Positions 4,603 to 59,979 of a stretch of 64,000 nt of DNA are shown piece by piece (the first letter of the stretch is position 1; each line of letters begins with the position of its first letter). The position numbers and the translations under genes are program-made. A model generated the notes under the pieces. That model saw only the letters and a program-made list of their open reading frames with translations, made no database searches and had not been told where the DNA came from. This DNA is from a virus (lineage: Duplodnaviria > Heunggongvirae > Uroviricota > Caudoviricetes), in IMG/VR virus record IMGVR_UViG_2909314774_000001; one strand, written 5' to 3'.

Positions 4603-4684
4603 GTATCTGGATAAGTAAGTACTAATTTACTATCATTGTGGCGCTGACAGGATGTTAGCGCCTACTTATTTCAAGGATGAAACA

Positions 4685-5383
4685 ATGGGAATTAAAGCTG
4701 ATATTCAGAGCTTATCTCCCTCTGCACTCATTGAGTTGTTCGTACTGGATATGTCGAACACAACTTCAGGGGGGAAGCTATTCTTCCACGCCGGAACAAA
4801 CGAACTGATGCAACCGGTCGTCTGGCAAGGAGTGACATACGAGCCGTGGCCAATCAAAGCATCAGGCTTTGACAAAACTGGCCAGGGAACGTTGCCACGT
4901 CCAAAAATTCAGGTATCGAACTTTGCCGGAACTGTCTCTGCGGAAGTTCAGGCAAACGACGATCTTGTTGGCTGCCGCATTATTCGCAAGATGACACTGG
5001 CTCGCTTCCTCGATGCCGTTAATTTTAAAGACGGCAACCCAACAGCAGATCCAAACCAACATTTCCCGGATGAAATGTGGTTTATCGAACAGAAAACTCT
5101 CGAAACTCATCAGGTTGTCGAGTTTGAATTGTCCAGTGTGTTCGATTTGATGGGGGTGCAACTGCCGTATCGTCAGATCATTAAAAACACCTGCCCGTGG
5201 AAATACCGAGGGCCAGAATGCGGCTATACCGGTCCATATTTCGACAAAAATAACCAGCAGACGTCTATGTCTGGTGCGGATTACTGCACAAAACGTTATG
5301 ACGCCTGTAATGCGCGTCGGAATTATTTTGCCGACGGTGTGATCCATTTTGGCGGATTTATTGGAGCTACGCGGTATGGGTAA
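4685..5383 (+). CDS. minor tail protein L (lambda gpL-like)
   Basis: Strong recalled similarity to lambda gpL (WQGxxYxPxPI, ARFLDAVNF, NTCxWxYRGxECGY, FGGF). Start chosen at ATG 4685 (AAGGA RBS 7 nt upstream) rather than ORF-track start 4652. Confidence 0.8.
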   Translation: MGIKADIQSLSPSALIELFVLDMSNTTSGGKLFFHAGTNELMQPVVWQGVTYEPWPIKASGFDKTGQGTLPRPKIQVSNFAGTVSAEVQANDDLVGCRIIRKMTLARFLDAVNFKDGNPTADPNQHFPDEMWFIEQKTLETHQVVEFELSSVFDLMGVQLPYRQIIKNTCPWKYRGPECGYTGPYFDKNNQQTSMSGADYCTKRYDACNARRNYFADGVIHFGGFIGATRYG

Positions 5384-6173
5384 TAAAGCAATCCCTGAGC
5401 TTGGCTCTGACGTTATGCAGCAAATCTATCTCTGCGCCATAAATCGCTACCCTAATGAAGCGTGTGGCTTTCTGGTTAGAACTAATGGCGACAAATATCG
5501 CTTTATGGAAGCGCGGAATGTTTCGGAGAACCCGCAGAACACTTTTGTAATGCACGTTGACGACATTATGGCGGCAGAGGATGCGGGTGATGTTATCGCA
5601 ATCTGGCATTCACATACTGATGAATCAGCAGAAGCATCTGATGCCGATCGTGCAGGCTGCGAAGCGACGGAAGTTCCGTGGATGATTCTGGCTATTCGCA
5701 AGAATGTTGAGGGAGATGCCCCTTTCCATTTTAGCGAGATGAATGTGATCACACCTGATGGTTTCGAAATGCCATACCTGGGCAGACCGTATGTATTTGG
5801 CGTATTCGATTGCTGGATGTTGTGTCGGGACTATTTGAAGCGTGAGTTTAACGTCGAACTAAACCCGAACGCACACCTGCATATTCCATCGTGGTACACC
5901 GGCGATAACGACATTCTCGATCAGAACTACCGTAACGAGGGATTGGTGCGTCTTGCGCCCGGAACAGAGCCTCAACGTGGGGACATCTTCTTTATCCAAT
6001 ACGGGAAAATGCCTGACCACTGCGCGGTTTATATCGGCGATGGAATGATTCTTCATCACCAGATCGACCGCCTTAGTTGTCGTGCTTATTACGGCGGAAT
6101 GTATCAGAAACATACGACGCATCACTTGCGTCACAGAGACTTGCTCAAGGGAGATGAGACGTGTCTGAGTTAG
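5376..6173 (+). CDS. tail assembly protein K (MPN/JAMM plus NlpC/P60 domains, lambda gpK-like)
   Basis: ACGF...HSHT...S.ADR JAMM-like motif followed by FDCWML and HCAVYIGDG.LHH NlpC/P60-like region; first ATG at 5376 overlaps the stop of L. Confidence 0.8.
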   Translation: MGNKAIPELGSDVMQQIYLCAINRYPNEACGFLVRTNGDKYRFMEARNVSENPQNTFVMHVDDIMAAEDAGDVIAIWHSHTDESAEASDADRAGCEATEVPWMILAIRKNVEGDAPFHFSEMNVITPDGFEMPYLGRPYVFGVFDCWMLCRDYLKREFNVELNPNAHLHIPSWYTGDNDILDQNYRNEGLVRLAPGTEPQRGDIFFIQYGKMPDHCAVYIGDGMILHHQIDRLSCRAYYGGMYQKHTTHHLRHRDLLKGDETCLS

Positions 6174-6754
6174 TTCATGTGCAGCTTGGCGGCCCTATGG
6201 CCAAACATTTTGGCCGCCACTGGCATCTAAAGGTGCGCAATACAAAACAGGCTCTGGATTTAATTGAGGCCAACAAGCCTGGGTTTAAAGCATGGATGAA
6301 GCGCAATATCAAAACCTATGACCGTTACCACATCCAGATCACCAATAAACAGGGCCACAAGTGGTCTGTTGACGAAAGTGAATATCAGATGATGGGGCAG
6401 TCTGACAACATTGCCAAAATCCGCATTACACCTGTTCCGCGAGGAAGCGGTGGATCTGCTTTTGGGTGGTTTCAGACGGTAGTAGGGGCCGCTTTGTTGG
6501 TTGTATCGGCGGTAGTGATGCCTGCTTTAGCACCTATCGGTTTGTCACTGATGATGGGCGGCATATCACAAATCATATCGCCGCAAGCCACTAACGAAAG
6601 TGTGAGACAGGCAGATAACTCGAACTCTTATTATTTCGACGGCCCTCAAAATACAGAAAACCAGGGCAACCCAGTACAACTTATCTATGGCGAGGAAATT
6701 CTGGTTGGCTCACAGGTTGTGAGTTCTTCAATCACGATTGACCAGCTAATGTAA
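6161..6754 (+). CDS. tail assembly protein I (lambda gpI-like)
   Basis: 197 aa between K and J homologues, GTG start overlapping K stop, hydrophobic C-terminal half as in lambda gpI. Confidence 0.65.
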   Translation: MSELVHVQLGGPMAKHFGRHWHLKVRNTKQALDLIEANKPGFKAWMKRNIKTYDRYHIQITNKQGHKWSVDESEYQMMGQSDNIAKIRITPVPRGSGGSAFGWFQTVVGAALLVVSAVVMPALAPIGLSLMMGGISQIISPQATNESVRQADNSNSYYFDGPQNTENQGNPVQLIYGEEILVGSQVVSSSITIDQLM

Positions 6755-9700
6755 ACAAGGATTTTTTTGAACATGGAACAGTTCAAGAAGAAAAAGTTAC
6801 CGCTGTTTATTGCAGGTGCGGGTGGTAAAAAAAGCAGCAAAAGCTCTAGCCGTACACCGGTTGAAGCCGACGATACCGTAAATTCTCGTGCAATGGCCGC
6901 TATCCTCGATCTTCTTGGGGAAGGTGTAATTGGCGGCTTGGTAAATGGCGCAAGATCTATTTTTGTCGACGATCTGCCGATTGTAAATGAAGACGGTTCC
7001 TCCAACTTCAGCGGAATCACATGGGATTTTCGCGACGGTTCGCAAGACCAGACTCCAATGTCTGGCTTTGATTTCGTTGAAACGCCTAAATCCGTCAATA
7101 TCCAGTTAAAAAAAACACATTATGTAACGGTTTCAATCGATAACGATGAAGCTGATCGGGTTCGTGTCATCATGAAGTTTCCTTCTTTGCGAAGCATAGA
7201 TAAAAAAACTGGTGACACGAACGGTACAACCGTTGAGTACAAGTTCCAGATAGCAAATGGCGACTCAACATTTGTAGATGTGGTCGCAGAAGGTGAAAAA
7301 AGCGTTGGCATTAAGCTAACAGCAAAGAAGACAGGTGTTTATTACCGTAGCTATGAGCTGAAGCTGCCTAAGCCTGGACGCGCGTACAAGGTTCGTGTAG
7401 TCCGTATTACCGATGATAACAGCAGCCAGTATCTCTATAACGATACATGGGTGGACTCAATAGGTGAGATTGTAGATACACCGATGAACTACCCAAACTC
7501 TGTGCTGGTGGGTCTGAAGGTTAATTCTGAGCAGTTTGGTAGCACCATGCCATCTCGTTCGTATTTGGTACGTGGATTAAAAATTCGCGTGCCGTCAAAC
7601 TACAACGAGGCCAGCAACACTTATGATGGTGTATGGGATGGCACTTTTAAGCTGTTGTCTTCTTCAAACCCCGCGTGGATTCTCTTTGATTTGCTTACCA
7701 ATGCTCGATATGGCCTTGGTCAGTATGTGTCGGAATCTATGATTGACCTCGGCCAGCTATACCAGATCGGTCGATATTGTGACGAAGAGGTTGATGATGG
7801 CTTTGGTGGTAAAGAGAAACGCTTTGCAATCAATACGCAGATCACCAGTCGACAGGACGCATACCGATTAATTCAGGATATTGCCGGTGCATTCCGCGGT
7901 ATGGTGTTTTGGGCTGGTGGCATGGTTAACATCATGCAGGATAGCCCATCAGATCCGGTAATGATGTTTACCAACTCTAACGTCAAAGATGGATTGTTTA
8001 CCTATAAAGGTTCTGCGCGTAAAGATCGCCCATCCGTTGCGCTCGTAACCTACAACAACAAGGAGGACGGTTATAAGCAAAACATCGAGTACGTTGAAGA
8101 TCAGGACGCAATGCGCCGTTATGGTGAGCGTAAGACAGAAGTCGTAGCATTTGGCTGTACAAGCCGAGGGCAGGCTCACCGAGTTGGTTTGTGGCTTTTA
8201 TATACCGCCAGAATGGAGTCGGATGTAATTACATTTACTGCCGGCTTAGACGCGTCATTTCTGATGCCTGGTGAAACCGTTCTGATTCAGAACAAATATC
8301 GCGCAGGCAAACGTAACTCAGGTCGAATTGTGGCGTTTACCAAAAACAGCGTCACACTCGATGCGCCGGTGTCGTTAGCCAAAGGCGGCTGCTTTATTCG
8401 AATACTGAATCAGGAAGGCAAAATCGTTGAACGCGATGTTCTTGAAACTGGCGAAAATATAACAAAAGTTACGTTTTCAAAATCCCTGTCTTCGGCTGAA
8501 ACGCCTGTTTTGAACGGCGTCTGGACTATTACAGAACCAGACCTCGAACCTATGCGCGTTCGCATCGTTAACATCGCGCAGGGGGAAACGCCGGGTAGCT
8601 TTGACATCACCGCTGTTGAGAACAATCCGTCTAAATATGAGGCAATCGACAATGGTGCAACGCTGATCCCGCAGAATACGACGGTATTGGACCCAACTTA
8701 CTCCAAGCCATCTAATCTGCAAATCACTGAAGGGACTTATCTCTCAAGCCCGGGCAACCTGTCAGTAAAACTGACTGCAACATGGGAAGGGAAATCTCCA
8801 GAGTATTGGATCAGTTGGCGACGTTCTGATGAAAACAATGTATCGAACTGGCAATCGGCGCGTGTAACCGAAGAGCAATACGAAATCGTTAATGTCGCGG
8901 AGAATGGACGCTACGACTTCCAACTGTATGCGGTTTCATTCAACGGTAAAAAAACAGAAATTATCAGTACCGTTTATCAGGTGCTGGGCACAATGACACC
9001 GCCGGATGCACCAACGTCATTAACGGCCGTTGGAGACTATCGTAATGTGATACTGAATTGGGTTAATCCAGATTCGGTGGACCTTGATCACATTAATGTT
9101 TACGCATCCCAGACCAACAATCTGGATACGGCGAAACTGATCGCAGAGTCTGCAAGCACCACCTTTACACATGCTGGTCTTGGGGATAGCGAAACGTGGT
9201 ATTACTGGGTTCGAGCATCGAACAAGCGAGGTATGTTAAGTCCTCCGAACTCAAACTTGGGTACAGAGGCGACAACTCGCGATGTACTGTCGTTCCTGAC
9301 TGGCAAAATTACATCTTCCGAGCTTGGTCAGGCTCTGCTTGAGGACATCAACAGCAAAGCCTCTCAAGAAGCAGTTGACGAGTTAAATGAGCATATCAAC
9401 CAGAGCGTCGAATCTTTGGAGGGGGCGGTAAACGACGTTAAGGAAGATATAGCTGAATTAGATAAGCAGTTCAGCGATAACCTCGCGGATTTTGAAATAA
9501 AATTCAACGAGCGTAGCGATGCTTTGGAGAACGCACAAACCGAGCTTAAAGGTGAGGTTTCGGCAACGATTGACAAGGTCAATGAAGCGTTTGAAAAAAT
9601 TGATGCTACTGATGCTGCAATTGTTGAAATCGAAAACACCGTATCTGAACACGATAAAGCTCTCGCTAATACAGTCGAGGCAATAAAGGCTGCAAGAGAT

Positions 9701-10041
9701 GAAGCGGCGGCTCTTATTGCTAAGGAAAGCGAGGCTCGTGTTGAAGGCGATGCTGCAAACGCTAAACAACTGGAAGTGTTGCAGTCAACGGTAGAGGAAA
9801 GCTCCGCTGCCGTTGAAGAAATGAAAAAGACGGTTGCAGAGGTCGATCGTGCCAGTGCAGAACTGACTACGAACATTGAGGCGTTAGCCAAAACAAATAT
9901 TGACCTGGCTCTTCGTCAAGATGAAGACCAGCACAAGCAGATGGTCAATAACGCGAAGATCGCAACAACACAGAAAACCTTTGCTGATGATATGTCTGCA
10001 ATGGCCACGAAGGTTGAGGAAATTCGGGTAATGACTCCAAC

Positions 10042-10545
10042 TTACTGATAGTGTTTTATGTTCAGATAATGCCCGATGACTTTGTCATGCAGCTCCACCG
10101 ATTTTGAGAACGACAGTGACTTCCGTCCCAGCCTTGCCAGATGTTGTCTCAGATTCAGGTTATGTCGCTCAATGCGCTGAGTGTAACGCTTGCTGATTAC
10201 GTGCAGCTTTCCCTTCAGGCGGGATTCATACAGCGGCCAGCCATCCGTCATCCATACCACGACCTCAAAGGCCGACAGCAGGCTCAGAAGACGCTCCAGT
10301 GTGGCCAGAGTGCGTTCACCGAAGACGTGCGCCACAACCGTCCTCCGTATCCTGTCATACGCGTAAAACAGCCAGCGCTGACGTGATTTAGCACCGACGT
10401 AGCCCCACTGTTCGTCCATTTCAGCGCAGACAATCACATCACTGCCCGGCTGTATGCGCGAGGTTACCGACTGCGGCCTGAGTTTTTTAAGTGACGTAAA
10501 ATCGTGTTGAGGCCAACGCCCATAATGCGGGCGGTTGCCCGGCAT
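10042..10545 (-). CDS. insB: IS1 InsB (transposase made as InsAB' by -1 frameshift)
   Basis: 167-aa frame matching IS1 InsB; the A6C slippery motif (TTAAAAAACTC on the coding strand) lies at 10481-10491 in the insA/insB overlap. Confidence 0.9.
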
Positions 10546-10739
10546 CCAACACCATTCATGGCCATATCAATGATTTTCTGGTGTGTACCGGGTTGAGAAG
10601 CGGTGTAAGTGAACTGCAGTTGCCATGTTTTACGGCAGTGAGAGCAGAGATAGCGCTGATGTCCGGCAGTACTTTTACCGTTACGCACCACGCCTTCAGT
10701 AGCTGAGCAGGAGGGACAACTGATGGAGATGGAAGCCAC
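10464..10739 (-). CDS. insA: IS1 InsA transposition regulator
   Basis: 91 aa [40 protein letters not shown]..., near-identical to canonical IS1 InsA as recalled; zinc finger CPSC...CSHC. Confidence 0.93.
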
Positions 10740-10905
10740 GGGAGCACCTCAAAAACACCATCATACACTAAATCAGTAAGTTGGCACCATTACCGAAATT
10801 CGCGTAGAAATTGGCGAAGACATTAAGGCCAGTATTCTGGAAGAGTCCACCGCTCGTGCCGATGGCGATGAAGCGTTGGCAAAGCGTGTCACTCAGCTGC
10901 AATCT

Positions 10906-11796
10906 AAGTTTGAAGGAGATATCAGCGCGGCGATTAGTACAGAGCAGGAGGCTCGTACATCTGCCGATGAAGCTCTGACGACACAGATCACTCAGCTTGA
11001 GTCGAAAGTAAGCAACGATATCGTCGCAGCTATTAAGGAAGAGCAAGAAGCCCGAGCAACGGAAGATTCGGCTCTGGCAAGCCAGATCACCCAACTTCAG
11101 GCAAAGGTTGATGATGATATTTCTGCTGCAATACGTAGTGAGCAGGAGGCTCGAGCAAGCGGGGACTCTGCGTTAGCCAAACAAATAAACCAGCTTCAGT
11201 CAAAGGTTGACGGTGATATATCCGCTGCCATCACTCAGGAGCAGGAGGCCAGGGCAAGTGCTGACCAGGCGCTCTCACGAGAAATTAACAGCCTGCGAGC
11301 ACAAACCGGAACTGATATTGCCGCAGCGGTTGCTGTAGAGACAAAAGCAAGGACTGATGCCGATAGTGCATTGTCTACCCAGATTACGTCTCTTACAGCA
11401 AAAGCTAATGATCTCGAGGCGTCTCTTGCCAGAGAAACAACGGCTCGTGCAGATGGTGATACCGCTTTAACAAAAGAGGTTTCAAGTTTAAAAGCACAGA
11501 CAGCGAAAGATATTAGTGCGGCCGTTGCAGTTGAAACGCAGGCTCGAACTGATGCTGACTCGGCGTTGTCGTCTCAGATCACCAAGCTGACCTCTCAATA
11601 CAAAGAGGATATTAAAGCGGCTGTAGCAACCGAAACGAAAACGCGTACAGAGCAAGATGCTGCATTGGCGACTCAAATCACAAACTTAGAGTCTCAAACG
11701 GCAGCCAACATTTCCGCGGCGGTAACAACTGAAACGACAGCGAGAACGCAGGCAGATAATGCTTTGAGTGGGCGAATCGATACTCTGAAAGCAGAG
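10906..11796 (+). repeat. nine tandem 99-bp (33-codon) coding repeats inside the J fibre gene
   Basis: Translation shows nine consecutive 33-aa units of the type K-V-D-x-D-I-S-A-A-I-x-x-E-Q-E-A-R-x-S-x-D-x-A-L-x-x-Q-I-T-Q-L-Q-(S/A). Confidence 0.85.
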
Positions 11797-12369
11797 GTGG
11801 ATGGAAATACCGCGACAATTCAACAGCAGGCAACAGCTATTGCTGATACCAACAAAAAAGTGTCAACCGCGTGGACGTTGAAAATGGAAACTTCAACGAG
11901 CGGAGGGCAGAAGTATGTTGCTGGTATTGCGCTTGGTATCGACACCACTGGCCTTTCTCAGTTTTTGGTGCAGGCTGACAGGTTTGGTTTGGTCAACTCT
12001 GTTAACGGGAAGATCACAACGCCATTTGTTATCGAAAACAGTATCGCCTATATGAATGGAGCGTATATCAAGGATGGCACAATCACCAATGCAAAAGTAG
12101 GCGATCTGCAATCTACCAATTTTGTTAGCGGTAGATCTGGATGGCGGTTCGGCAAAAATGGAACGCTTGAGATCAACGGTAATAGCGGCGGCAATGGGCG
12201 ATTGGTTATAAATGGTCAGCGGATTGACGTTTATGACGATAACAACGTCTTACGAGTAAGAATTGGCCGTCTGTGATGGTGGAAAAAAAATTTTATATCG
12301 GTAAAAATAGGTAAGTATTTACTTAATGGCGGGCAAGGATAGCCCGCCAAATCAAGGAGCATATTCAAC

Positions 12370-17655: not shown

Positions 17656-17721
17656 TCAAGGTGAATGGTGAGGGGCCACCCTCACCAATTCAGGATATTC
17701 ACATCAAAAAGGAGATTAGAT

Positions 17722-18504
17722 GTGCCAATTGTCGGTGTTCCCGGTTGGATTGGGTCTTCGGCTGTCAGTGTGACAGGCCAGAGATGGATGAGTGCGGCTC
17801 GAACGGCGGTGCAACTGCCAGCGGCTGGTTCAATGTCTCAAATGGCCGGGCGATCTAAAGAAGTTCAGTACAGCATCGGTGCGAATCATAACTACAACAA
17901 AGACACACTGATCAACTATTTAAAATCCCAGGGGGCGACGCCAGTCGTTGTTACCATTACAGGGGATCTGGTGTCGTCCAGTAGCGGCGTGCCATGTTTA
18001 GATTTCCCGAGTTCACTTACCAACTCTTATATCAGCCTTGTAATCAACGCAGGTGTGACTGTCTATGGACGCGGTGGCAATGGTGGTAGTAACGCTGCCG
18101 GTGCTGCTGGTGGTAACGCAATTAATAATGGCATCGGTACACGCTTGCGTATTACGAATAATGGTGCAATCGCTGGAGGTGGCGGCGGCGGTGGCGGCGG
18201 TAACAGGGGTAAACTAATATTTGGTGGTGGCGGTGGTCGCCCATTCGGTGCTGGTGGGTCTTCCTCTCATATGAGTTCCGGTGCAACTGCTGGTACTATT
18301 TCCGCTCCTGGTAAAGGATCTGTTGGTGAGGGGTCTCTTAGTGCATATACAGGCGGTTCGGGTGGTAATGTCGGTGCTGCTGGAGGAAGATGTAATACTC
18401 AAGGTAACGGTACAGAATATAACGGCGGAGCAGCTGGTAAAGCCGTAACTGGCAACGCGCCTACATGGACTAAAGCTGGGGCAATTTACGGCGCTCATGT
18501 GTAA
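17722..18504 (+). CDS. glycine-rich protein, possible gp38-like tail-fibre adhesin
   Basis: GTG start with AAAGGAG RBS 7 nt upstream; C-terminal half is made of poly-Gly motifs (GGGGGGGGGNRGK, FGGGGGRPFGAGG, GGSGGNVGAAGG) separated by short variable segments; sits immediately 3' of the fibre gene. Confidence 0.45.
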   Translation: MPIVGVPGWIGSSAVSVTGQRWMSAARTAVQLPAAGSMSQMAGRSKEVQYSIGANHNYNKDTLINYLKSQGATPVVVTITGDLVSSSSGVPCLDFPSSLTNSYISLVINAGVTVYGRGGNGGSNAAGAAGGNAINNGIGTRLRITNNGAIAGGGGGGGGGNRGKLIFGGGGGRPFGAGGSSSHMSSGATAGTISAPGKGSVGEGSLSAYTGGSGGNVGAAGGRCNTQGNGTEYNGGAAGKAVTGNAPTWTKAGAIYGAHV

Positions 18505-18578
18505 GTACTTACCTACCAAGTGTGGGCGTTTTATGATATAAAACCGCCATCCCGATTTGACGATTCATGGAGGAAATA

Positions 18579-23932: not shown

Positions 23933-24113
23933 TAGATTATGACCTGCTTCCGTATGTATTTAATAAGTTACTTATTATTTGTATATACAGAAGCAGGTCT
24001 TTTAAAGACACCCACCAGAACAAGTCCCTTCCGTTTCCACTTCCAAAAACTGCCACCAGTCGCTATCATCCGCTCATTGTGATAAGTAAGTAACTACCTA
24101 CCAGGTGAGCCAC

Positions 24114-27498: not shown

Positions 27499-27576
27499 TA
27501 ACAATCACCTTTAAAATAAGTAGATGATTACTTATCTTTCTGTGAGAATACTTTCATCTGTTAGCTAGGAGTTGGT

Positions 27577-28353: not shown

Positions 28354-28408
28354 TCTCTCCGCGCGTCGTTTTTTACGCAAATAACGATAGGTAAGTACAA
28401 GATTATTT

Positions 28409-33744: not shown

Positions 33745-33918
33745 GTATGTATTTCACTCTACTAACTATAAAATATTAGGCTAATGTTAACCAAACAATG
33801 CCTTAATTAATAGATTGATCGAGGCTTTAATAGCTTTATAATGCAGATTGCAAAGATAAGTATGCACACACCTATCTTCTTTGTAAGTAAAGTTGCATAT
33901 CAATTCTATGAGGTAACA

Positions 33919-34164: not shown

Positions 34165-34375
34165 TTTTAACGGCTCACAGGAGCCGTTTTTTATTCCCAC
34201 CAAACTCACTCCTGTTTCCCTTAAAATTCAAAAAACAACGTCTAAATGATTCCATACCTACTATGTATGGAATCATTGCTGAAAATGAGTTACTTTTACT
34301 CTTGATCCTATAAGAATCTATGCCTAATATACTGTTTACTTATACAGTGCATCGGCGTAACTCGGTGATTGTCAT

Positions 34376-35479
34376 ATGAAAAATAGCTTTGACAGAGCAC
34401 GCGCTGCGGAGAACACCTCAAAAGAGGCGATAGAGTATCTCGAAAGAGCATCTCAAATGCAGGCCGTTATGATCTCCCAGGTCAGCAATGACATGAGATT
34501 CTCGGACGCATTCATGTTATTCACTCGCTTATCTCTGCTGATAACCAGACGTCGGCCAGAGATCGCTGTTCATTGTATTTTGATACATGTTTTGCCGCAC
34601 ATTGCCGATGTAAAAGTAAGTGACATTAATAGGTTCATGGTGAACCAACTGGTCAACCCACTAATACTGGATGGCAAAATTGTTATGGGCCGCCGCGTTT
34701 TCTCTCTGATGAAGCAGTTCCTTAGCTGGTGCGCCTTCCAGGGGATGATAGACGTGTCACCGTTAAACGATATGTCACTTAACAAAGTTGCCGGTGGCGC
34801 AAAGCCCACACCTCGCGAGCGGAAGCTGACCGACGCAGAGGTATGGGTGTTCTGGAATATATGGGACTACTTCAATGTGTGTGCTGGTACAAAATGGGCG
34901 GCCAGGCTATGTCTTGTATCCGCAAGACGACCTGACGAAGTACTGCGGGCTAAAAAAAGTGAGTTCAATCTTAAGCGTGGGGTTTGGAATCAAGGCAAGA
35001 GGAACAAATCTGCCCGTGAGCATTCTCTGCCTTTAAGCTCATTAATGCGCACTTGTATTGAAGAGTTGTTCGAATATGGTAAAGACAGCCAGTGGCTCGT
35101 GCCTTCGAATAAAAAAATCGGGAAAGACCTTCCTATGTCTAAAGTGGCAATAGCCCAGGCATTACGTCGTATTCTGGAACGACCAGAACTGATGGAGCTT
35201 GAGCCATTTACACCCCGAGATTTGCGCCGTACTGCGCGTAGTTACTTCCCAGCATTAGGCATAAGCCAGGAGGTATCACGTAAAATCATGAACCACAGTC
35301 TTGAGGGGATAGATCGGGTCTACGACCGGCACGATTATATGGACGAGATGCGAGACGCCTTAGAAAGTTTCTCGACGTACATCGCATCAATCGTAGAGCA
35401 ACCGGATTTAGACGAAATTGACCACAAATTTAAGGGAGATCGTCTATCAACAGAGCTTATTCGTGTAAATTTTTCATAG
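34376..35479 (+). CDS. tyrosine site-specific recombinase
   Basis: C-terminal catalytic region with LVSARRPDEVL (box I Arg), PRDLRRTARS (box II) and IMNHSLEGIDRVYDRHDY (HxxxxxxxxY, Tyr nucleophile). N-terminal region unusual, start uncertain. Confidence 0.7.
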   Translation: MKNSFDRARAAENTSKEAIEYLERASQMQAVMISQVSNDMRFSDAFMLFTRLSLLITRRRPEIAVHCILIHVLPHIADVKVSDINRFMVNQLVNPLILDGKIVMGRRVFSLMKQFLSWCAFQGMIDVSPLNDMSLNKVAGGAKPTPRERKLTDAEVWVFWNIWDYFNVCAGTKWAARLCLVSARRPDEVLRAKKSEFNLKRGVWNQGKRNKSAREHSLPLSSLMRTCIEELFEYGKDSQWLVPSNKKIGKDLPMSKVAIAQALRRILERPELMELEPFTPRDLRRTARSYFPALGISQEVSRKIMNHSLEGIDRVYDRHDYMDEMRDALESFSTYIASIVEQPDLDEIDHKFKGDRLSTELIRVNFS

Positions 35480-35860
35480 AGACTTTATGGCCTCAACAAC
35501 CTTTTGTGATGCGCCTTTCTCTTTACCGAATCGCTCGTTATATGCAGCAAGAACCTGTTTTTCGTCCTCGTTAAGAGGAGCAGTGCCTTCTTTGTATAAA
35601 AATGCTGCGAGTTCGGGTTGGCGTTCTTCCAGCACCATCATCATAAGACGACTTGGCTCAATACCCAGTGCCAGCGCCAGCGGACGAACCTTATCGATAG
35701 GCAAAGGAATTTTGCCGCTTTTAATTAAAGAAAGGTTGTTGGCGTTTTTATACCCAATTGTTTTGGCTATCTGGGCCTGGCTCATAGGTGAGGATTCAAT
35801 CAACCCTGCGATAAAAGCAGCGTAGCGACTTTCTATAAATTCAATCTTGTTATCAGACAT
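35474..35860 (-). CDS. XRE-family helix-turn-helix transcriptional regulator
   Basis: 128 aa, convergent with the recombinase; HTH segment SQAQIAKTIGYKNANNLSLIKSG resembles Cro/CI-type DNA-binding domains. Confidence 0.6.
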   Translation of the reverse strand: MSDNKIEFIESRYAAFIAGLIESSPMSQAQIAKTIGYKNANNLSLIKSGKIPLPIDKVRPLALALGIEPSRLMMMVLEERQPELAAFLYKEGTAPLNEDEKQVLAAYNERFGKEKGASQKVVEAIKSL

Positions 35861-36422
35861 GGTTACAACCTTTGCGCGTTCAATTCTCTCTGGTAAGTGC
35901 TTACCGATATTACATCAAAGGTTAGGGTTGTAAAGCTATTATCATTTTTTTCGATAGGCACTTAAAAGACCGGTTAAAGGCCATTGCACGGAGAAAAATT
36001 AGCCCAAAACAGGTAAGAAAATCAACTTGCATATGATATGAATGTATTCAGTATTGATACAAATTTTAGTAGTATTCCTTACCATAATATAAGTTAGAAT
36101 GGATTGATTGAATGAACACCACTATTTCCAGCCTAATCGCTCTTGAGATCGGACACGTACAGAAATTAGCTGATGAGTGTGTAGCTGACATCCTCACCGA
36201 TCTACCGAATGAGCAGATTCAGGTTGGTGTGAATGACACAACTGGATTTATATTCGAACTTAACAACAAACGCTTCACGCTTCTCAATACCGGCTCCGGG
36301 TCTTTAGCCGTCAGAATCTGTTAACCCCTCTTCTCCCTGCGCGAATGGCTTAGTTCCCTGTTCGCGCAGTGCTACATTAAACACACTAGTAAATAATTTG
36401 TTTTCATAACAAAGGATTAGCC

Positions 36423-38531: not shown

Positions 38532-38626
38532 TTAAAACAGCCTTAATGATAAGTAACTACTTACCATAGTTAATGGTATATTTATATAAGAACTTGAACG
38601 CTCATTAGAGAACAAAGGAAAAGCGC

Positions 38627-40042: not shown

Positions 40043-43000
40043 ATGAAGGCACTGATGGTTCGAACTGACTTCTCACTTGGGGAGTCGGCTCTAAAAGCAG
40101 AAAACGCGGTGAAGATTGCCAGAGAAGCTGGCTACACCGCTGTAATTTCAGCAGATAGCATGAATATTGCAAGTGTTATTCCACTACAACGTGCCGCTGG
40201 TGACGACATGGCGGTTATTTGTGGTGTGAAACTAAACATTGTTGATGATCCCACATACGAGCACCGGGCTAAACTTGCTAAAGAATCTATGAGATGTATG
40301 GAATCATTAGAGCGGGGACGTAACTACTCGTTTACCGCTCTAATTAAAAATGAGCAAGGATATCGCGACATCTGCGAACTAATGACGGCGGCCAACACAC
40401 GAGAACAGTTCTACTTTGTACCGCGTCTCTCGCTCGAACAGTTGGTTTCTACATATGCCAAAGGCAACATCATCCTGCTTACTTCCGACATCGGTAGCGT
40501 GTTCCAACGCAACGATTTTGCAAAAATCATAAGCACACTGATTACAGCGGGTGGAAAAGACAACTTCTATAGTGTGGTTTATCCGCACCCTACCCCATTC
40601 TACGACCAGATTAACGTCCGGGCGATGAAAGTCGCCAGCGCATTGAAAATAGAGCCAGTGGCGTTCTATCCCGCTTATTACGAATCGATCGACGATGCAG
40701 ACATTAAAGACATTGCGCACATGGTTACGAACAACATCAAAATCGACCAGCCGCATCGTCTGCGTATCCCCCACCAGCGAGATAACGCCGTCAATGGTCG
40801 CCGCCATCTCCTTGAGGCGCTTAAAGCCTTCTCCGTTCGCATGGATGTGCCGGTAACAGCTGCAATGGCCTCAACAACGCAGGATACCATTATCGATGCC
40901 TGCACATGGCGCTGGCATGAATTGCCGCCAGCACTGCCAAAGATGGCAGACGACGAGCCTGCAACGCTTATGAAACTGGCTGTTGCAGGGCTGCGTAAAC
41001 GTCTTACCACAAAAGAGTTTGGCTACACACCACCTGCTTCTGAGAACAGGGTTTATGTTGAGCGGCTAAAGTACGAAATGGACACGCTGACTCGCCTGGG
41101 ATTTTGTGGTTACTTCCTGATGGTACGCGATCTGATGAATCATAGTCGTGAAACTGGCATTCCCGTTGGGCCTGGTCGTGGTTCCTCTGCCGGTTCTCTG
41201 GTGGCGTGGTGCATAGGCATAACCAACGTCGACCCAATCCGTCACGGTCTTCTGTTTGAGCGTTTCATCAACCCTGAGCGTCTCGACTTGCCGGATGCGG
41301 ACTTGGACTTCAGCCAGGCACGTCGCCATGAGGTGATCGAGTATCTGAATGAACGCTACGGCGAAGATTACGTTGCGGGTATTCCGAACTTCACCTACCT
41401 GGGCGCAGCCTCTGCACTACGTGATACCGCTCGTATTTATGGTGTGGAGTCCGCAGATATGGCGGTATCAAAAGAACTGAAGAACGCTGAGGATGATAGC
41501 CTTCCATTGGAAGAACTGCGCGAACAACTGGCAAGTCTCGACAAATACGCAACAAAATATCCTGATGCATTCAATGCAGCCTGCAAGTTACAAAGCCTTA
41601 TGCGTGGCTTTGGTAGACATGCGGCAGGGATGATCGTAGCAGGTGTTCCTCTGACAGAACGTACACCGGTTGAGCGCCGTGGTGACGCGCGTTGTATCGC
41701 ATTTGACAAGCGTTACTGCGAGGCTATGGGCCTAATTAAGCTGGACGTGCTTGGCCTGGCAACTCTCGATTTGCTCGATAGTGCAAAACGCTACATAAAA
41801 GAGAACACAGGTGAAGATATCAATCTTGATGCCATTTCTCTTGAAGATCGCAAGGTGCTGGATGGTTTTGCTGCTGGGTACACTCAAGGTGTTTTCCAGC
41901 TTGAATCAGGCCCAATGCGCAAGCTGCTTAAAGATTTAGGTGGTGGAATTGAGCCAATGAGCTTTAAAACGGTCGTCGCTACAACTGCGCTCTTCCGGCC
42001 GGGGCCAATTCAATCAGGCATGTTGGATGACTATGTTTCTGTCGCCAAAGGCTTTATGACGCCGGAATCATTACACCCCGTTCTTGATGAACTTACCGCG
42101 GAAACAAATGGCGTGATTCTCTATCAGGAACAGACGATGAACGCGACTCGATTGCTTGCCGGCTTCACAATGGCTGAAGCTGACGCTGTGCGTTCCGCAA
42201 TCGGTAAGAAGAACATGGAAAAAATGAAGAGCATGGGCGAGAAGTTCATCGTTCAGGCTCAAGCTGGCTGGATAGACGTTGAGCTGGAAGATGGCACTAC
42301 ACAGCGCATTCACCGTGCGGAACATTTTAAATGCGAAGACGGAACTCTGAAAACTGTCGAAGAGGCACTTGAGCACGGCGCAAAACTACCTATAAACGCA
42401 GTACGCGTTACAGCGTCACATCCAGGGCTATCAGAGATGAAAGCGAAGGAGATCTGGACCGCATTTGAGAAAAACGGAGCCTATCAGTTCAATAAATCAC
42501 ACTCCGTTGCTTATTCTTTAATCAGTTATCAGTCTATGTGGCTAAAGACGCACTACCCTGCTGAGTTCTTCGCAGCTGCGCTCACCATTCTGGGCGAGGA
42601 TAAGCATCAGGGGCTGGTGAAGGATGCGCTGACCTATGGCATTCGCGTATTGCCACCAGACGTTAATGTGTCATCTAACCGAATTGAGATCCGCACACTC
42701 GAAGACGGCAGTCAGGCACTGTATGCGCCATTCTCTGCTGTGAAAGGCTGTTCTGAAAATGGTTGTCAGGCAATTATGCGTGCGCGTGAGAAAGTTGGTG
42801 GCAAATTCGAGTCAGTGGCACAATTCGATGAAGCGGTCGAGAAGCGTGCATGTAACAGTCGTGTACGCGAGTCGCTTCATAAAGTAGGGGCTTTTGCGTC
42901 AATTGAGCCAGGCAGTCTTCCAGCAACTGATCCTGAACGACTGCGCGACCAGGCTGAGCTGATGGGCAATCTCATCATTGACGCTGTTAAAGCATCACGT

Positions 43001-43561: not shown

Positions 43562-43864
43562 TAAAGAAAACCCGCCTGTTGGCGGGTTTATAAAGAATTA
43601 TGGCGCTTGTTGAGGAAGTCACTCCTCTTACGCACTTTGTTTTGCCATGCCGGCAGTTAGCTTCTGCCTTTGACTATTCATGCGGCAACCCCGCATTTCG
43701 CCACAATGGGCAATTCACTTTTATGGAATAAACTGGCCGTTGTGTCGATTTAATTAGCATGGCCTTACCATGCTAATTTATTCAACTTGTACAATCCTGC
43801 AAATCTATCCACTCAGGCTTACACCGTCTTCGTTATTGTAGAAATGAGGATCATCAGCGTTGAA

Positions 43865-44080
43865 TCAGCTTAGAGCAATGACATTTGCTGCTGCTGGGCC
43901 TTTAGCCCCATTCTCGATAGAGAATTCGACCTGCTGGCCTTCTTCCAAAGTGCGGAAATTATTACTCTGAATTGCCGAAAAATGTACAAAAACATCTTTA
44001 CTGCCATCAGCAGGAGAAATAAAGCCAAAGCCTTTATCAGAGTTAAACCATTTTACTAAACCAGTCATTTTATTAGACAT
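43865..44080 (-). CDS. cold-shock protein (CspA family)
   Basis: [38 protein letters not shown]: RNP1/RNP2 motifs of CspA-type OB-fold proteins; start placed at the internal ATG (70 aa). Confidence 0.85.
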
Positions 44081-44409
44081 AGATATTACCTTCTTAATTT
44101 TGTGAGCCACATAGTGCGGCGAGAATTTGATCTGTATAGATTGGGACTTACTTAGGCACTTAAGGAGGAGACTCACGAAGAAGGGAAATCAGAAGATAAC
44201 ACTGAACTGAGACTGCTTTACTAAAACTGCTTACATAAGGTCTGTCTTGCAAACCAACGATGCTATTAACGCATACCCCTTCTTTTCATGCAACCTTTAT
44301 TTTTCAAAGATAACTAATTTTTGTCACCATTGGTTTAGTAAACGTTAACGAACCAGACGATGCCAGACACCTTTACAGAGAACAGATGCCCGCCAATTGG
44401 CGGGCATCA

Positions 44410-45944: not shown

Positions 45945-46061
45945 TTTTTGATAGATAATAAGTAAGTACTGATCTATCATTTAACAGCTCGAAAGAGCCA
46001 CGAATGAACGAAAGCCCAACGCGCATAGCGCCATCGGCCAAATCACAACAAGGAGAAACAC

Positions 46062-49437: not shown

Positions 49438-49529
49438 ACACAAGGCGTCCACAGGACGCCTTGTTTATCTCTTGAAAATATATAAGTACTTACTTATTAT
49501 TTTCGCATAACAACCACATAGGAAAACAC

Positions 49530-50564: not shown

Positions 50565-52230
50565 CTCCCCTAAAAAGTTCAGGCGTCCAGTTGGACGCCT
50601 TTTTTATCGCAATTATCTTATTAAGAAAACAATTTGTTTAAAAGGATAAGAAAACATGACAACTATTAAGAAACTCTACGATGCCGCAAACGTGGCTCTG
50701 GATGTTATTGATGATGAAGTAGCAAAAGGCTTTCCTGAACCTGATTGGGCGCATCAGCTACGAAACGCTATCGCAGAAATGACCCCACCAGATCCAACCC
50801 CCGACGAGACAGACTGGCAGCGATTCATCCGTATGTACGCTCAGGAAATAGGTCCAACGCCAACGGCAGAGCAGGCAATGCTGCTGAAATACTTCAAAGA
50901 GGCGGGAGAGGATTTACCAATTGATGACTCAGCATATTGGTTCCACTGCGCATGGCGTAAGTATGACGTGATATTCACACAAGGCATGGGAAGCAAAGAT
51001 ATGGTTGTGTGGCATCTACTCCATATAGACACAGCCGTTGACAGAGTTATTGAACAGTTTTTCCCTAAACAAGAAGATTGATCGCCTATTCATAACTAAC
51101 AAAATAAGTAAACACTAACCACAAAAGGAAAAACACATGAGAGTTTTAGTTCGAATCGTTACCAGCACTGTCTATGACGTGTTTCCGCTTTTTATGGTCA
51201 AAGCCGATGGCCTTAACGACGAAGAAACTGACGCGCTGATCCAGCGTATTCTCGTTGAATATACAGGTCATGACGCTGATTCAGTGATGGTTGATGATGA
51301 TGGTGTTTGTTGGCATAACGGCAACTGTTGGTACGTAGAAGAGACTCAACAAATCAGTGATGAAGATGCCGAACATCTTGAGCGTATTTTAAGCATCAGC
51401 ACTTTTGAGTGAGTTTACAGTAAAATTTATATAAGTTAGTATCTACCTATCATGAAGATTTTTATTGAATACTTGTTACTCATCGTTTCAATAGCTTTTG
51501 TCATCGACTGCATTTTCACTGGTGTCATTCGTAAAGTCTTTTCCCCGGTGCACGACGTAGTCATAAACGCTTTGGCTATCGTGCTCGTATTTAATTCAGC
51601 ATTTGATGTAATCAAAGAGGTGGCAGCATGAAGGCCATCCCATTCGCGCTGTTGTTCCTTTCTTCGATCGTTGTGGCCGACACCACTGTTTATCAGTGTG
51701 AAATGTCTGTAGCCGACGTTAAGAATGGCGCTCTTACCGACGTCATAAAAGCACCATATGGAGCGATGGTCGTAGACAGCGGCGACCAGTTCTATGTTGT
51801 GCGTGACGATCGAGTGTTGTCATCCCCATATCTCACAAATCGTAATGGCAAATTAACCGGCGTCGGAGAAGACCACTTCGTATACAACAAATACAAGGGC
51901 TTCTATGGCGTTCACGCTTCTCAGCAAAGCTACCTTTTCGATGACTGCAAGGAGGTTGGATAATGGCATTAACACTGGCAGGTCTGGAAATCGAGAAAAC
52001 AAGCGGCTACTGGCGTGCTAAGGGTTTCAAGCAGCCTGGCATTCTTGAGCGTCTGGAACGTGAAGATGGGTATATCGTCCACCAGCGGCGTGAATGGCGT
52101 ATGTACGATCCAGAAACAGGAAAACTGACTACAAAAGCCGGAACACTTTGGGGTCTGTTGAAGAAAATTCACTGATAACACCAACCACTGCGGTGAGTAG
52201 TCTGCTCACCGCATTCGTATCCAGCTCATT

Positions 52231-53720: not shown

Positions 53721-53764
53721 TCCAAATGTCTCTTGTTATTCGACGGCTTTGGTGGCCTTTGCTG

Positions 53765-53888: not shown

Positions 53889-53995
53889 CATGTCTGAAGG
53901 CAGATGGCACAACGGTTTGAGGTTGGCGGGGATCTTATTGGGTCTTTATGGGTCTCTTTGGTTCTCTTTGTGATCTGAATTACTGGATCGGGCCT

Positions 53996-54051: not shown

Positions 54052-54462
54052 TAAGGACATAAGAATCATGACTAAGAGTAGAGTTGAGATATATCTATGT
54101 ATATCAGTATGTTAATGAAGAATTAAGTCATTAAGTTATCCATAAAAGACAATGTGCTCTACTCTCTACAGTGGATATATACAGCTCTCCAGAGTGGTTG
54201 TTTTACTCTTCATAGCGGTTATTCAGCTCTCTACAGAGGTTTCTTTGCTCTCCATAGTGGATGGCAACACCCTTTCAGACCAGTAACCGCAACGGCTAGA
54301 GGCGATCGGGGATCTCTTTGGATCTTCTATTTGATCTTACTTGGGATCTCTTATTTGGATCTATCCAGTGGATAACTGGGATAAGTAAAACAGGCAAATG
54401 CAGATTAAGGTATGCCTAATGAGTTATCGTAGCATCGGCCAATAACTACTGAAAAAACGATT

Positions 54463-55107: not shown

Positions 55108-55362
55108 CCCTCCAGATCGTATATTGGCGTAGATAGAATCTACGCCCCCTCAAAATAGCTCTCATAGCGTTCTACAGTGATCCTGTCTTATTTTTAGTCA
55201 TACAGACAAGCAAAGTTGCGCCACGATAAATAGGTATATACTTACTTATAAATTTTTGTATATTAAGGCGCTCGTTTCATTCCTAACATACCGTTATGCA
55301 TAGTTGTTTACCTCCTCATTGCTCTTAGAATTTGTATCAAAATAACCACAAAGGAAAAACAC

Positions 55363-56448: not shown

Positions 56449-56677
56449 AGCAAAGTCGTTATGGGAGCTTTCGAGACTTTGCCATCACGATGAAAAGACT
56501 TGAACGAGGCCAGACGGTGATGTTTCACAAGCCCTACCCGCCACAAGGAAATCCCGTAGCGTTTTATCTTGGAAGGTTAACAAGAAAAGGCGTATTGAGG
56601 CGCAGATCCTTCCCGGCGCATACGGAGTTCAGATTGAAAGAAGGCCAAAAGCTAACACACGGTATCAGAGGTGTTAT

Positions 56678-58594: not shown

Positions 58595-59327
58595 ATTAAG
58601 CCGCTCGCAGTTTTTGCAGGTATTTGCAGTGATGCAGTCGATAAAACTGATCAATGGGCATACTTCCAATGGTGCGGCTCCACGTATTCTGTGGGGCAGC
58701 AACAATATTGACGGAGTACAATTCGCCGCGTTGCTTGGTCTAATATCCGAGACGCCATTGATGCAAAGTTTGAAATCACTACCACCTGGATGTATTGCGC
58801 CGATCCTGATTAATCCTTTTGTTGAGGGGGGATATCTTCCCAACGTCGGGCCTGGGTTTATTGCATCCCATGAAACTGAAGATCTTAACATTAATAGCGA
58901 AGGGTTCTTTGGGGGAATGGGTGCGCATCACTGTATGGCTTTCACGAACCTTATTCGACTTGCCAATAAGCGGGTGGATAGTTTGGCATCGCCAGGTGAT
59001 GCTTTTACTGGTTTCCTTATCCAAAGGAGGGATAAAAAGTACAGTGCGGACAAACTACAGTTTGTTGGTAAGTATGGAGAAATGGTAGAAATCGAACTTC
59101 AGCTCCCTCATGTTTTAGCAAACGATAGTGCAGACAGTCGGAGGCTATTGGGCATCATGCGTCATTTCATAGCAAGTGGTGTTAAACATGCCGCAGATAA
59201 ACGTGTCACGCAGGAAAATGAGTATTCAGACTTTGCAAACTATCCCCAACCAACGTTGCAAACGGCAATAGTAGCCAATTCGTTGGAGGCGAGATTATTG
59301 GAAAACCCTATATGGGGAACATGGTAA
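58584..59327 (+). CDS. hypothetical protein
   Basis: 247-aa ORF between the SbcC-like and RuvC-like genes; no motif recognised. Confidence 0.35.
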   Translation: MSFKLSRSQFLQVFAVMQSIKLINGHTSNGAAPRILWGSNNIDGVQFAALLGLISETPLMQSLKSLPPGCIAPILINPFVEGGYLPNVGPGFIASHETEDLNINSEGFFGGMGAHHCMAFTNLIRLANKRVDSLASPGDAFTGFLIQRRDKKYSADKLQFVGKYGEMVEIELQLPHVLANDSADSRRLLGIMRHFIASGVKHAADKRVTQENEYSDFANYPQPTLQTAIVANSLEARLLENPIWGTW

Positions 59328-59336
59328 GGAGACTAT

Positions 59337-59906
59337 ATGAGTAAAAAAATCAGCGTAGTTGGTGTTGATCCCTCAATGAGCAACTTTGGGCTTGCTGTGG
59401 GCACTTTAGACCTTGAGACGGACGAACTTGAGATTCACGGCCTTACTCTTGTTGAGACTAAAGCGGGGAGTAACAAAAAGACCGTTCGTGTGAACAGTGA
59501 CGATCTGCGCCGCGCCAGTGAAATATGGCGTGTTGCGAAGCCAATCATTGATAAGGCAAATATGGTTTTTTGTGAGCTACCGGTTGGGAGCCAAAACTCT
59601 CGTTCGCAGACGTCTTACGGTATTTGTATCGGTGTACTTGCGTGTGTGGATAAGCCATTGATCCAGGTTACTCCAAACGAAATCAAGCATTTTGTCGGCA
59701 ATAAACTTACTACATCGAAAGAAGAGATTATCCAGTGGGCTACGAAAAAACACCCTAAAGCACCGTGGCTGCGTCGTAAGCAATCTGGACAGGATGTTCT
59801 CGTGAACAAAAACGAACATTTGGCTGATGCGGTGGCTGCCATCCATACCGGTATGCAAACAGATCAGTTCCGCCAGGTGCGCGATGTTCTTAAGTCTCTC
59901 ATTTGA
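59337..59906 (+). CDS. RuvC-like Holliday junction resolvase
   Basis: N-terminal ISVVGVDPSMSNFGLAV (RuvC-type first catalytic Asp in a beta-strand) and C-terminal acidic catalytic region; 189 aa. Confidence 0.55.
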   Translation: MSKKISVVGVDPSMSNFGLAVGTLDLETDELEIHGLTLVETKAGSNKKTVRVNSDDLRRASEIWRVAKPIIDKANMVFCELPVGSQNSRSQTSYGICIGVLACVDKPLIQVTPNEIKHFVGNKLTTSKEEIIQWATKKHPKAPWLRRKQSGQDVLVNKNEHLADAVAAIHTGMQTDQFRQVRDVLKSLI

Positions 59907-59979
59907 TTTCATTGATAGGTAAGTGCTTATCTATTAACATGGGCCACTATATTTAGTGGCCCTCTTTATTTGGTGATAC

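Follow-up and report, generated by a model that had tools for sequence, protein, structure and literature searches.

Does a short palindrome that recurs between the genes of a phage genome mark the binding sites of a dimeric phage regulator, or does it define a class of phage-specific promoters? The question is raised by 64,000 nucleotides of Caudoviricetes DNA (IMG/VR record IMGVR_UViG_2909314774_000001; here called the window, meaning the whole stretch analysed), in which a first-pass annotation, made from the sequence alone, had listed 14 intergenic copies of TAAGTA-N(2-4)-TACTTA and proposed both explanations. A 12-kb part of the window is 97% identical to Escherichia phage Cyrano (OV696614), the pLF82 phage-plasmid of E. 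coli LF82, and approximately 80% identical to Salmonella phage SSU5 and to Klebsiella phage-plasmids; judged by its sequence, the window is an SSU5/pHCM2-type phage-plasmid. Such SSU5-like elements are common, with the portal gene found in ∼965 PLSDB plasmids, and the family includes Salmonella Typhi pHCM2, Yersinia pestis pMT1, the Klebsiella pKpn group and an Acinetobacter group. We found no description of their regulation, or of the motif string, in the searchable literature; earlier mention elsewhere is possible. The palindrome described below is real and symmetric, is placed between genes, is conserved in position among related elements and drifts in sequence from lineage to lineage. With little more than even confidence, we lean towards reading it as the genome-wide operator of a dimeric phage repressor that would silence lytic genes in the plasmid state, most probably an XRE-type protein encoded in the window, a putative helix-turn-helix regulator.

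The intergenic palindrome and its conservation

Four strict matches to TAAGTA-N(2-4)-TACTTA occur in the window, against 0.01 expected. A count of exact 5- to 6-mer dyads barely exceeds that of shuffled sequence (4 vs 3–5) and is uninformative here, so a degenerate model was needed to bring out the signal. An unbiased seed search with no knowledge of the earlier motif, in which every fourth 22-mer of crude intergenic regions was scored by its 12 best matches elsewhere, returned versions of the palindrome as all of its top 15 seeds; such motif discovery over intergenic regions had been proposed in the first-pass annotation. Expectation-maximisation refinement against an intergenic background, keeping local maxima only, gave a 26-column position weight matrix (PWM) of ∼19 bits with the consensus AATGATAAGTAAGTACTTACCTATTA, while refinement against a whole-window background collapsed into an AT-rich non-motif and was discarded. 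Scanning both strands of the whole window with the PWM yields 12 sites of at least 20 bits and 4–5 more at 14–18 bits, all of them intergenic once the start of one crude open reading frame (ORF) had been corrected. No site of at least 20 bits appeared in 20 dinucleotide shuffles of the window, nor in 200 shuffles of pooled AT-rich intergenic DNA, the control of equal AT content that had been named beforehand as a test able to refute the motif. A chance origin is excluded.

Since the PWM was trained on the window, other genomes provide the better test, SSU5 and the Klebsiella phage-plasmid pJN2-26 being outside the training. At a threshold of at least 20 bits there are 16 sites in Cyrano, 20 in SSU5 and 19 in pJN2-26, each against 0 in shuffles. 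Lowering the threshold to at least 18 bits gives 19–22 sites per genome, of which 76–95% are intergenic, and their range extends to the genes for head, tail and lysis. The fraction of sites with an intergenic centre is 18/19 in Cyrano, 18/22 in SSU5 and 16/21 in pJN2-26, where intergenic DNA makes up ∼8% (p ≤ 1e-13). The copy number is ∼16 in the window and 25–30 per genome.

The recurrent intergenic palindrome noticed in the first pass, whose quoted sequences are present, is thus upheld, with corrections. Thirteen of the 14 copies listed belong to one motif family (16–29 bits with the 26-column PWM), those at 27.5 kb and 59.9 kb having been placed ∼10 bp off, and three or four copies, one of them marginal, had been missed (marked in Table 1). 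The remaining entry, 23961–23981, scores 7 bits and was rejected as a member, being the loop of a long perfect hairpin. This hairpin, at 23940–24004 after the KAP NTPase gene, is a long near-perfect structure followed by a T-run (GACCTGCTTC...GAAGCAGGTC-TTTT), with the listed mini-palindrome contained in its loop, and similar hairpins are found in Cyrano at ∼31175 and ∼78095. A usual placement 20–60 bp upstream of start codons is too narrow a description: the distance from core to next start is 1–113 nt, with a median of ∼41. The reported absence of the motif before cargo holds: in the window scan, neither the TacT/TacA-type toxin-antitoxin pair nor the ParA-KAP NTPase operon is preceded by a site scoring 14 bits or more, and the same is true of the cold-shock protein (csp) gene and of repA. 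The cold-shock gene (43840–44258, minus strand) is cargo on the opposite strand without an operator copy, and carries a full-length cspA thermoregulator in its 5′ untranslated region (Rfam RF01766, 183 bits).

An alignment of 62 sites from the three enteric genomes (Cyrano, SSU5 and pJN2-26), centred on the dyad, defines a palindrome of fixed length, the 22-bp RATARGTAAGT/ACTTACYTATY (the slash marks the centre), whose column base frequencies are mirror-symmetric to about ±13. No other conserved element is present between −70 and +70 of these sites except for A-rich left and T-rich right flanks, which mirror one another. The variable N(2-4) spacing seen in the first pass is a register artefact of the TAAGTAAGTA tetranucleotide repeat, the spacing being fixed, and the GATAG...CTATC sequence in which the motif had been described as embedded is indeed there, not as a separate element but as the outer arms of the same palindrome. 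Complementary positions between the halves number 475, against 480 ± 7 after right halves have been randomly reassigned to other sites, and no left-right association is seen at ±7 and ±11, the variable positions (Fisher p = 0.56–1.0). The halves therefore degenerate independently, which indicates selection on sequence rather than on pairing, and argues for a protein dimer on duplex DNA and not for an RNA or cruciform hairpin. No Rfam 15 covariance match falls on a motif site, the only matches in the window being the cspA thermoregulator and three tRNAs. Two other readings were considered and rejected: a composite of the motif with a downstream hairpin, because GC-rich hairpins lie downstream of 5 and upstream of 3 of the 62 sites, and a directional −10 hexamer TATYAT at +8 to +13, because it is mirrored on the left side and so belongs to the palindrome.

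Sites occupy orthologous places in Cyrano, SSU5 and pJN2-26 despite the diverged intergenic DNA around them. In the head region these are the TerL/portal gap, the 3′ end of the portal gene and the interval between the capsid gene and its terminator; in the tail and lysis regions, sites precede the tail tube, tail L, tail fibre and holin genes; and in the rest of the genome they precede the helicase block, the tRNAs, the genes for SSB, nrdA, thyX and dam, and others. The same sites are found in genome contigs of Kluyvera and Yersinia pestis and in a metagenome-assembled contig labelled Bacillota (loci fetched via the portal protein), and the motif stands at orthologous positions in pMT1-type elements. 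In distant relatives the position of the element is kept and its sequence is changed, reading GATAGGTGGTT/AACTACCTATC in the relative L014, ATAGGTATTT/AAATACCTAT in Morganella, GATAAGTCAnn/nnTGACTTATC in Massilia and GATAGTCAAAACTGACTATC in Paraburkholderia. An Acinetobacter baumannii phage-plasmid has ∼28 copies of AATCAGTCAGT/ACTGACTGATT (operator variant AATCAGTCAGTACTGACTGATT), and there a training-free dyad count gives 11 for it, while no unrelated dyad exceeds 2. The L014-type and Morganella-type operators differ in their inner bases; as the motif differs by phage lineage even among elements hosted by Enterobacterales, its reader is likely to be encoded by the phage and not by the host. 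Every lineage examined also has one copy between the major capsid stop codon and a strong intrinsic terminator, with no recognisable promoter (Table 1).

Predicted promoters at the palindrome

Computational inference from consensus scans, using a simple −35/spacer/−10 sigma-70 model, places promoters over the motif. Since the motif is symmetric, the mirror direction can be used as an internal control for promoter direction. The best promoter in the direction of the gene has a mean of 6.5 bits against 4.8 bits in the mirror direction at the 62 enteric sites (Wilcoxon p = 7e-5), and 8.4 against 6.2 bits at 50 sites in the Acinetobacter, Massilia and Paraburkholderia relatives (p = 0.005), p-values that are generous because orthologous sites are not independent.

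The register between motif and predicted promoter varies from site to site, and is kept within each orthologous group in the three enteric genomes. The −35 hexamer starts at −37, −27, −23, −16, −13 or +2 from the motif centre. Relative to the predicted start, the centre lies at about +1 to −38 in enteric sites, with the downstream sites 33855 and 24081 at ∼+16, and at about −44 to +16 overall. The motif fills the spacer of TTGAAA-17-TATSAT both at the site inside the portal gene and at 49472–49500 in the window. In GC-rich relatives, predicted TTGACA promoters reach 14–16 bits, and the motif arm contributes to a perfect TTGACA (centre ∼−42), or the motif occupies the spacer (∼−20) or lies over the start (+1 to +8). 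At the TerL/portal site, the Massilia copy is inside the spacer of TTGACA-18-TACTAT, while the Paraburkholderia copy abuts TTGACA-17-AATACT, a register unlike that in Massilia.

Several of the overlapped promoters are near consensus, including two in the window with 10/12 matches each (Table 1). Near-consensus promoters would need no activator and would be constitutive unless repressed, yet the genes they precede do not appear in the set expressed in the Cyrano lysogen (PMC9928086). The variable register points in the same direction, as a protein that competes with polymerase could work from such positions and one that contacts polymerase from a fixed position could not. Of the two explanations proposed at the outset, a phage-specific promoter class is not supported: the flanks of the motif contain nothing directional at constant spacing, and ordinary −35/−10 hexamers are present across the whole range of registers. 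The annotations of Cyrano and SSU5 include no phage RNA polymerase gene, with no dedicated sigma-factor search made. An operator for a dimeric phage regulator is favoured instead by the symmetry, the independent decay of half-sites, the predicted promoter overlap and a copy on the promoter of a regulator gene.

The XRE gene and its surroundings

That regulator, the XRE-type protein already named as a possible binder in the first-pass annotation, is also the most likely candidate here. It matches PHROG 8 "transcriptional regulator" (1e-11) and Pfam HTH_19 (19.7 bits, under the 30.2 cut-off). Its AlphaFold2 model is all-helical, with a mean predicted local distance difference test score of 77 and a five-helix N-terminal part, and no PDB relative was found by sequence. 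The gene is expressed in the Cyrano lysogen (PMC9928086), and alone among the lysogeny-expressed genes of Cyrano it matched a DNA-binding or regulator family (10 of the 13 others were scanned against PHROG, three of toxin-antitoxin type being excluded); ten further Cyrano proteins in the PHROG scan, seven of them lysogeny-expressed, gave "unknown function" or no match. XRE homologues are present in 864 PLSDB plasmids, nearly always adjoining the integrase gene, with XRE/portal counts of 348/341 in Klebsiella, 92/91 in Enterobacter, 63/62 in Yersinia, 49/49 in Salmonella and 25/25 in Citrobacter; only in Acinetobacter do most elements fall under the search threshold.

The XRE gene is divergent from a 70-residue gene, and its predicted promoter, TTTACA-16-TAATAT (35934→35907, minus strand), has a motif core directly after the −10. 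The intergenic block, with TAATAT followed by GGTAAGTRCTTACC, is conserved in the window (E. coli type), Klebsiella pJN2-26 and pHCM2, and the core as read on the XRE strand is GGTAAGYACTTACC. Because this core abuts the conserved XRE promoter, whatever binds the motif would also occupy the XRE promoter start. In the Acinetobacter element, three lineage-specific palindromes occupy the interval that separates the XRE homologue from the divergent gene beside it, and a promoter directed at the XRE gene has one of these in its spacer. The recognition-helix region reads NANNLSLIKSGK in the E. coli and pHCM2 types, NPNILSLIKKGR in Klebsiella and RPNVLSMIKSGE in Acinetobacter, differences that are compatible with the shift in operator sequence and are no proof of a link. 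A diverged XRE homologue (P0055) considered for covariation proved to come from a frameshift-ridden Klebsiella-type element with the usual motif, and was of no use.

Compared with pHCM2 (L019), SSU5 (NC_018843, ∼42600–42760) is without the integrase, XRE and 70-residue genes, and homology between the two restarts 88 bp before the cobT-like gene. As the flank is 94% identical to pHCM2 we read this loss as a recent deletion, and SSU5 looks like a recent repressor-less derivative of a pHCM2-type phage-plasmid. The isolation of SSU5 as a plaque-forming phage fits this reading.

The integrase gene (34376–35479) is convergent with the XRE gene, with a 6-bp overlap at the XRE 3′ end. Before it, a canonical LexA box (TACTGTTTACTTATACAGT, 34330–34348) overlaps the −10 of a predicted promoter, TTGATC-17-TAATAT (window 34302–34348), and promoter and LexA box are conserved in Klebsiella pJN2-26 and pHCM2. 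Since the integrase gene converges on the XRE gene, SOS-induced head-on transcription could lower the repressor; a 39-fold induction of Cyrano by ciprofloxacin is on record (PMC9928086). At 34246–34276, 5′ of the integrase promoter, are perfect inverted arms of 12 bp, ATGATTCCATAC-N7-GTATGGAATCAT, which are kept in three enteric lineages; they look like a tyrosine recombinase core site, for dimer resolution or attachment.

The genes of the window are nearly all on the + strand, and run from tail, lysis, toxin-antitoxin pair, parA, helicase/primase/ligase, tRNAs and the integrase/XRE module to cobT/cobS-like genes, DNA polymerase III alpha, recombination genes, repA, sbcCD and nrdAB (Table 1). 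After the 1761-residue fibre gene comes a T-even-type Gp38 tail-fibre adhesin (17665–18504; Pfam GP38, 5e-70), and the fibre module as a whole is unlike that of Cyrano. An IS1 transposase ORF (10042–10545, minus strand; Pfam DDE_Tnp_IS1, 1e-74) lies inside 6767–12276, where the insertion cuts the tail host-specificity (J-like) gene into 1093-residue and 466-residue pieces; with this gene split, the present copy of the phage-plasmid probably cannot build functional tails.

Table 1. Copies of the putative operator, with predicted promoters, and the candidate regulator gene (window coordinates unless another genome is named; "new" marks copies missing from the first-pass list)
Feature	Position	Score (bits)	Context	Predicted promoter and register	Orthologous sites
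Copy GATAAGTAAGTACTAATTTACT	4610-4631	22.2	Between tail genes M and L	Overlapped by TGGATA-17-TATCAT	Cyrano, SSU5, Klebsiella pJN2-26
Copy	12306-12327	24.8	Before 1761-aa tail fibre gene		Cyrano, SSU5
Copy	18496-18517	22.7	Before holin/lysis genes		SSU5 27483, Klebsiella 69451
Copy	24081-24102	25.3	11 nt before start of gene preceding helicase-primase genes	Conserved TATSAT hexamer 12 nt upstream of core; core at about +6 to +27 of putative transcript	
Copy	27515-27536	21.7	After primase gene		
Weak copy	28386-28407	16.3	Left half good, right half degenerate		
Copy	30868-30889	26.5	Upstream of tRNA cluster	TTTACT-17-TAAGAT, −35 within right half	Arrangement kept in SSU5 and Klebsiella
Marginal copy (new)	33775-33796				
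Copy (new)	33855-33876	17.9	Just 3′ of near-consensus promoter	TTGATC-16-TATAAT, 33815-33842, 10/12 matches; core thus at about +6 to +27	
Core-only copy GGTAAGTGCTTACC (new)	35888-35909	16.2	On XRE regulator gene promoter		
Copy	38548-38569	21.2	Before cobS-like gene		
Copy	45957-45978	25.9	Before gp32-like SSB gene	Motif occupies spacer of TAGATA-17-TATCAT	SSU5, Klebsiella
Copy	49477-49498	26.2	In spacer of near-consensus promoter	TTGAAA-17-TATTAT, 49472-49500, 10/12 matches	
Weak copy (new)	51103-51124	16.2			
Copy	51430-51451	24.4	Abuts start codon of 59-aa membrane protein gene	TTTACA-17-TAGTAT (51414-51442), −10 at palindrome centre	Kept in three lineages
Copy	55229-55250	24.4	Before sbcD-like gene		
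Best window copy	59914-59935	28.6	Before nrdA; terminator hairpin begins one base past −10	TTGATA-17-TAACAT, 59912-59940, motif from −35 to −10	Kept in SSU5, Klebsiella
Capsid-terminator copy	Cyrano 5441-5497; SSU5 5469-5510; L017 13569; L018 13562; Acinetobacter plasmid 79724				
128-aa XRE-type protein, putative helix-turn-helix regulator, candidate binder	35474-35860		Minus strand; PHROG 8, HTH_19		

Candidate readers and comparison with known systems

If the palindrome is the operator of the XRE protein, repressor dimers would occupy the ∼25–30 copies in the plasmid state and block host polymerase at nearly every lytic sigma-70 promoter. The blocks gated in this way would comprise the tail, lysis, replication, recombination and nucleotide-metabolism genes, together with the head genes that lie outside the window, while genes without a site would remain active (the toxin-antitoxin pair, parA with the KAP NTPase gene, csp, repA and cargo). 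The core copy on the repressor's own promoter would provide negative autoregulation, and copies without a promoter might, at a guess, be roadblocks or anchors for cooperative binding. A bolder version is possible, but we hold it to be doubtful: a single XRE repressor would gate all lytic units, including head, tail and lysis, through a co-evolving 22-bp code, using host polymerase and no late activator or antiterminator, with promoter-less copies as roadblocks or looping anchors and with induction through the LexA-controlled integrase promoter firing head-on into the repressor gene. If true, this would be an exception to the positive control of phage late genes.

Several points weigh against repression by the XRE protein. 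SSU5, which is without the XRE/integrase module, keeps 20 strong sites, and a different binder retained by SSU5 would account for them equally well. In the immunity region of the E. coli type there is only a single copy, of modest score, and the presumed rightward promoter is not covered. At certain conserved sites (such as the enteric TerL/portal gap and the capsid-terminator copy) no predicted promoter is convincing, so that occlusion alone is insufficient, and the presence of the same operator before early-type and late-type genes leaves late timing unexplained. A continuous palindrome of 20–22 bp is long for the dimer of a small helix-turn-helix protein. Finally, the promoters are predicted from consensus, and binding, repression and the XRE protein as reader are what we infer from sequence.

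These difficulties give some room to other readers. The palindrome could be the activator box of a lytic or late promoter class, at which a phage protein made after induction recruits host polymerase, as Lpa does in P1. Its centre AAGT/ACTT resembles the P1 "−22 box" (ATGTGACTT, AAGTTACTT, TAGTCATTT; AAGTnACTT, with the −10 4–9 nt later), many enteric sites have no good −35, and the right arm and flank supply a TATYAT hexamer, but this hexamer is the one mirrored on the left and hence is not a directional −10. The motif precedes late structural operons, which are positively controlled in well-studied phages (PMC10695390), and at 4–5 sites of GC-rich relatives its centre is at ∼−42, the classic class II position; yet at those sites the perfect TTGACA is partly made by the motif arm, so that a bound protein would mask the −35, and other centres fall on or beyond the start, positions from which activation is not feasible. 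An 88-residue protein annotated as DNA-binding is encoded just 5′ of the small terminase gene in all lineages, a further point in favour. Against an activator, no Lpa homologue was found by tblastn in Cyrano, SSU5 or pJN2-26 (best E = 1.0), with no profile search run, and one copy covers the start region of the repressor gene promoter. We consider this explanation unlikely.

Rather improbable, in our judgement, is another phage DNA-binding protein kept in every lineage including SSU5, either the tandem proteins with ParB N-terminal domains (KorB-like) or the 88-residue protein, acting as global regulator, roadblock or DNA organiser. KorB of plasmid RK2 has 12 palindromic operators dispersed over the plasmid, some beside a −35. 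The ParB-like pair, the ATPases and the 88-residue protein are syntenic from E. coli to Massilia and Paraburkholderia, the same range over which the motif is found, SSU5 retains these genes and the motif without the XRE gene, and promoter-less sites are more easily explained by a roadblock or organising role. However, the ParB-like and 88-residue genes are missing from the reported expression set of Cyrano as a plasmid (PMC9928086) and themselves lie behind a weak motif copy (Cyrano 105103), Pfam sees a ParB N-terminal domain only and no helix-turn-helix, and the motif is tied to the immunity switch by its cluster in the Acinetobacter XRE region and its overlap with the XRE promoter in two lineages. 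An RNA hairpin in transcripts, as an RNase III site, a terminator or stabiliser, or the target of a FljA-like translational repressor, is very improbable. In its favour, ∼10 bp of hairpin could form from a perfect copy, a start codon is as near as 1–13 nt to some copies, and the elements encode a FljA-family protein (Pfam Flag1_repress, 1e-80), of which the Salmonella prototype acts on fliC mRNA. Against this, the halves do not covary and have many A·C mismatches at ±7, it is sequence and not pairing that is conserved, the distance to the start codon is widely variable, and neither an Rfam family nor a consistent adjacent hairpin accompanies the sites. The FljA-family member itself is full-length ("repressor of phase-1 flagellin", PF03614, 1e-80) and lies outside the window at Cyrano 100780–101301 (L003 1780–2301, minus strand), with a weak Hfq-like C-terminal signal; in an Acinetobacter relative, a 179-residue protein annotated as Hfq is encoded directly behind a motif copy.

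An operator, a candidate repressor and a map of ∼25 promoters would together make a testable regulatory model for the family, and the first regulatory map for a large and clinically widespread group of phage-plasmids. They would also explain which genes remain active in the plasmid state, predict immunity groups from operator variants and offer handles for curing or inducing the elements. Control of many scattered operators by a single prophage repressor is familiar from P1 and L5, and in concept the feature is not surprising.

By analogy, the putative regulon is functionally like the P1 C1 operators and the L5 stoperators, without belonging to either. P1 is likewise a plasmid prophage of ∼100 kb with many scattered operators for its one repressor. 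As annotated in the P1 record, these overlap sigma-70 promoters in varying register (at the −35, at the −10 or downstream), including the repressor's own, and the predicted promoters here are overlapped in a similar way. The P1 operator is, however, an asymmetric 17-mer, ATTGCTCTAATAAATTT, and not a symmetric 22-mer; the window holds no match to it with up to 3 mismatches, and tblastn found no C1 homologue in Cyrano, SSU5 or pJN2-26 (best E = 6.1). P1 late genes are moreover under Lpa and not directly under C1, whereas the palindrome stands before early- and late-type genes alike. The P1 late promoters share with our sites an inverted repeat with an AAGT..ACTT core near a −10-like hexamer before many operons, but the P1 box is 9 bp, takes the place of the −35 and keeps a constant short spacing to the −10, in contrast to 22 bp in variable register with TTGACA/TTGAAA boxes present and no Lpa homologue found. 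The L5/Cluster A stoperators bound by gp71 are asymmetric 13-mers in one orientation that block elongation, and lie between the genes of co-directional early and late operons. As with these, ∼25–30 copies here occupy short intergenic gaps, some without a recognisable promoter, although our sites are symmetric, with mirrored column frequencies, and most overlap predicted promoters. RK2 KorB/KorA offers another case of plasmid-wide palindromic operators, and two proteins with ParB N-terminal domains are encoded here, but these are not reported as expressed in the plasmid state and are not linked to the motif. Closest is the Cro/CI type: a small, putative helix-turn-helix protein of the XRE family divergent from a small gene, a palindrome over its own promoter and lineage-specific operator clusters in the immunity region. 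Lambdoid repressors use few clustered operators, whereas here most copies are far from the immunity region, with one before nearly every lytic transcription unit. The system would be best described as a Cro/CI-type repressor-operator pair whose operators are unusually dispersed over the whole genome.

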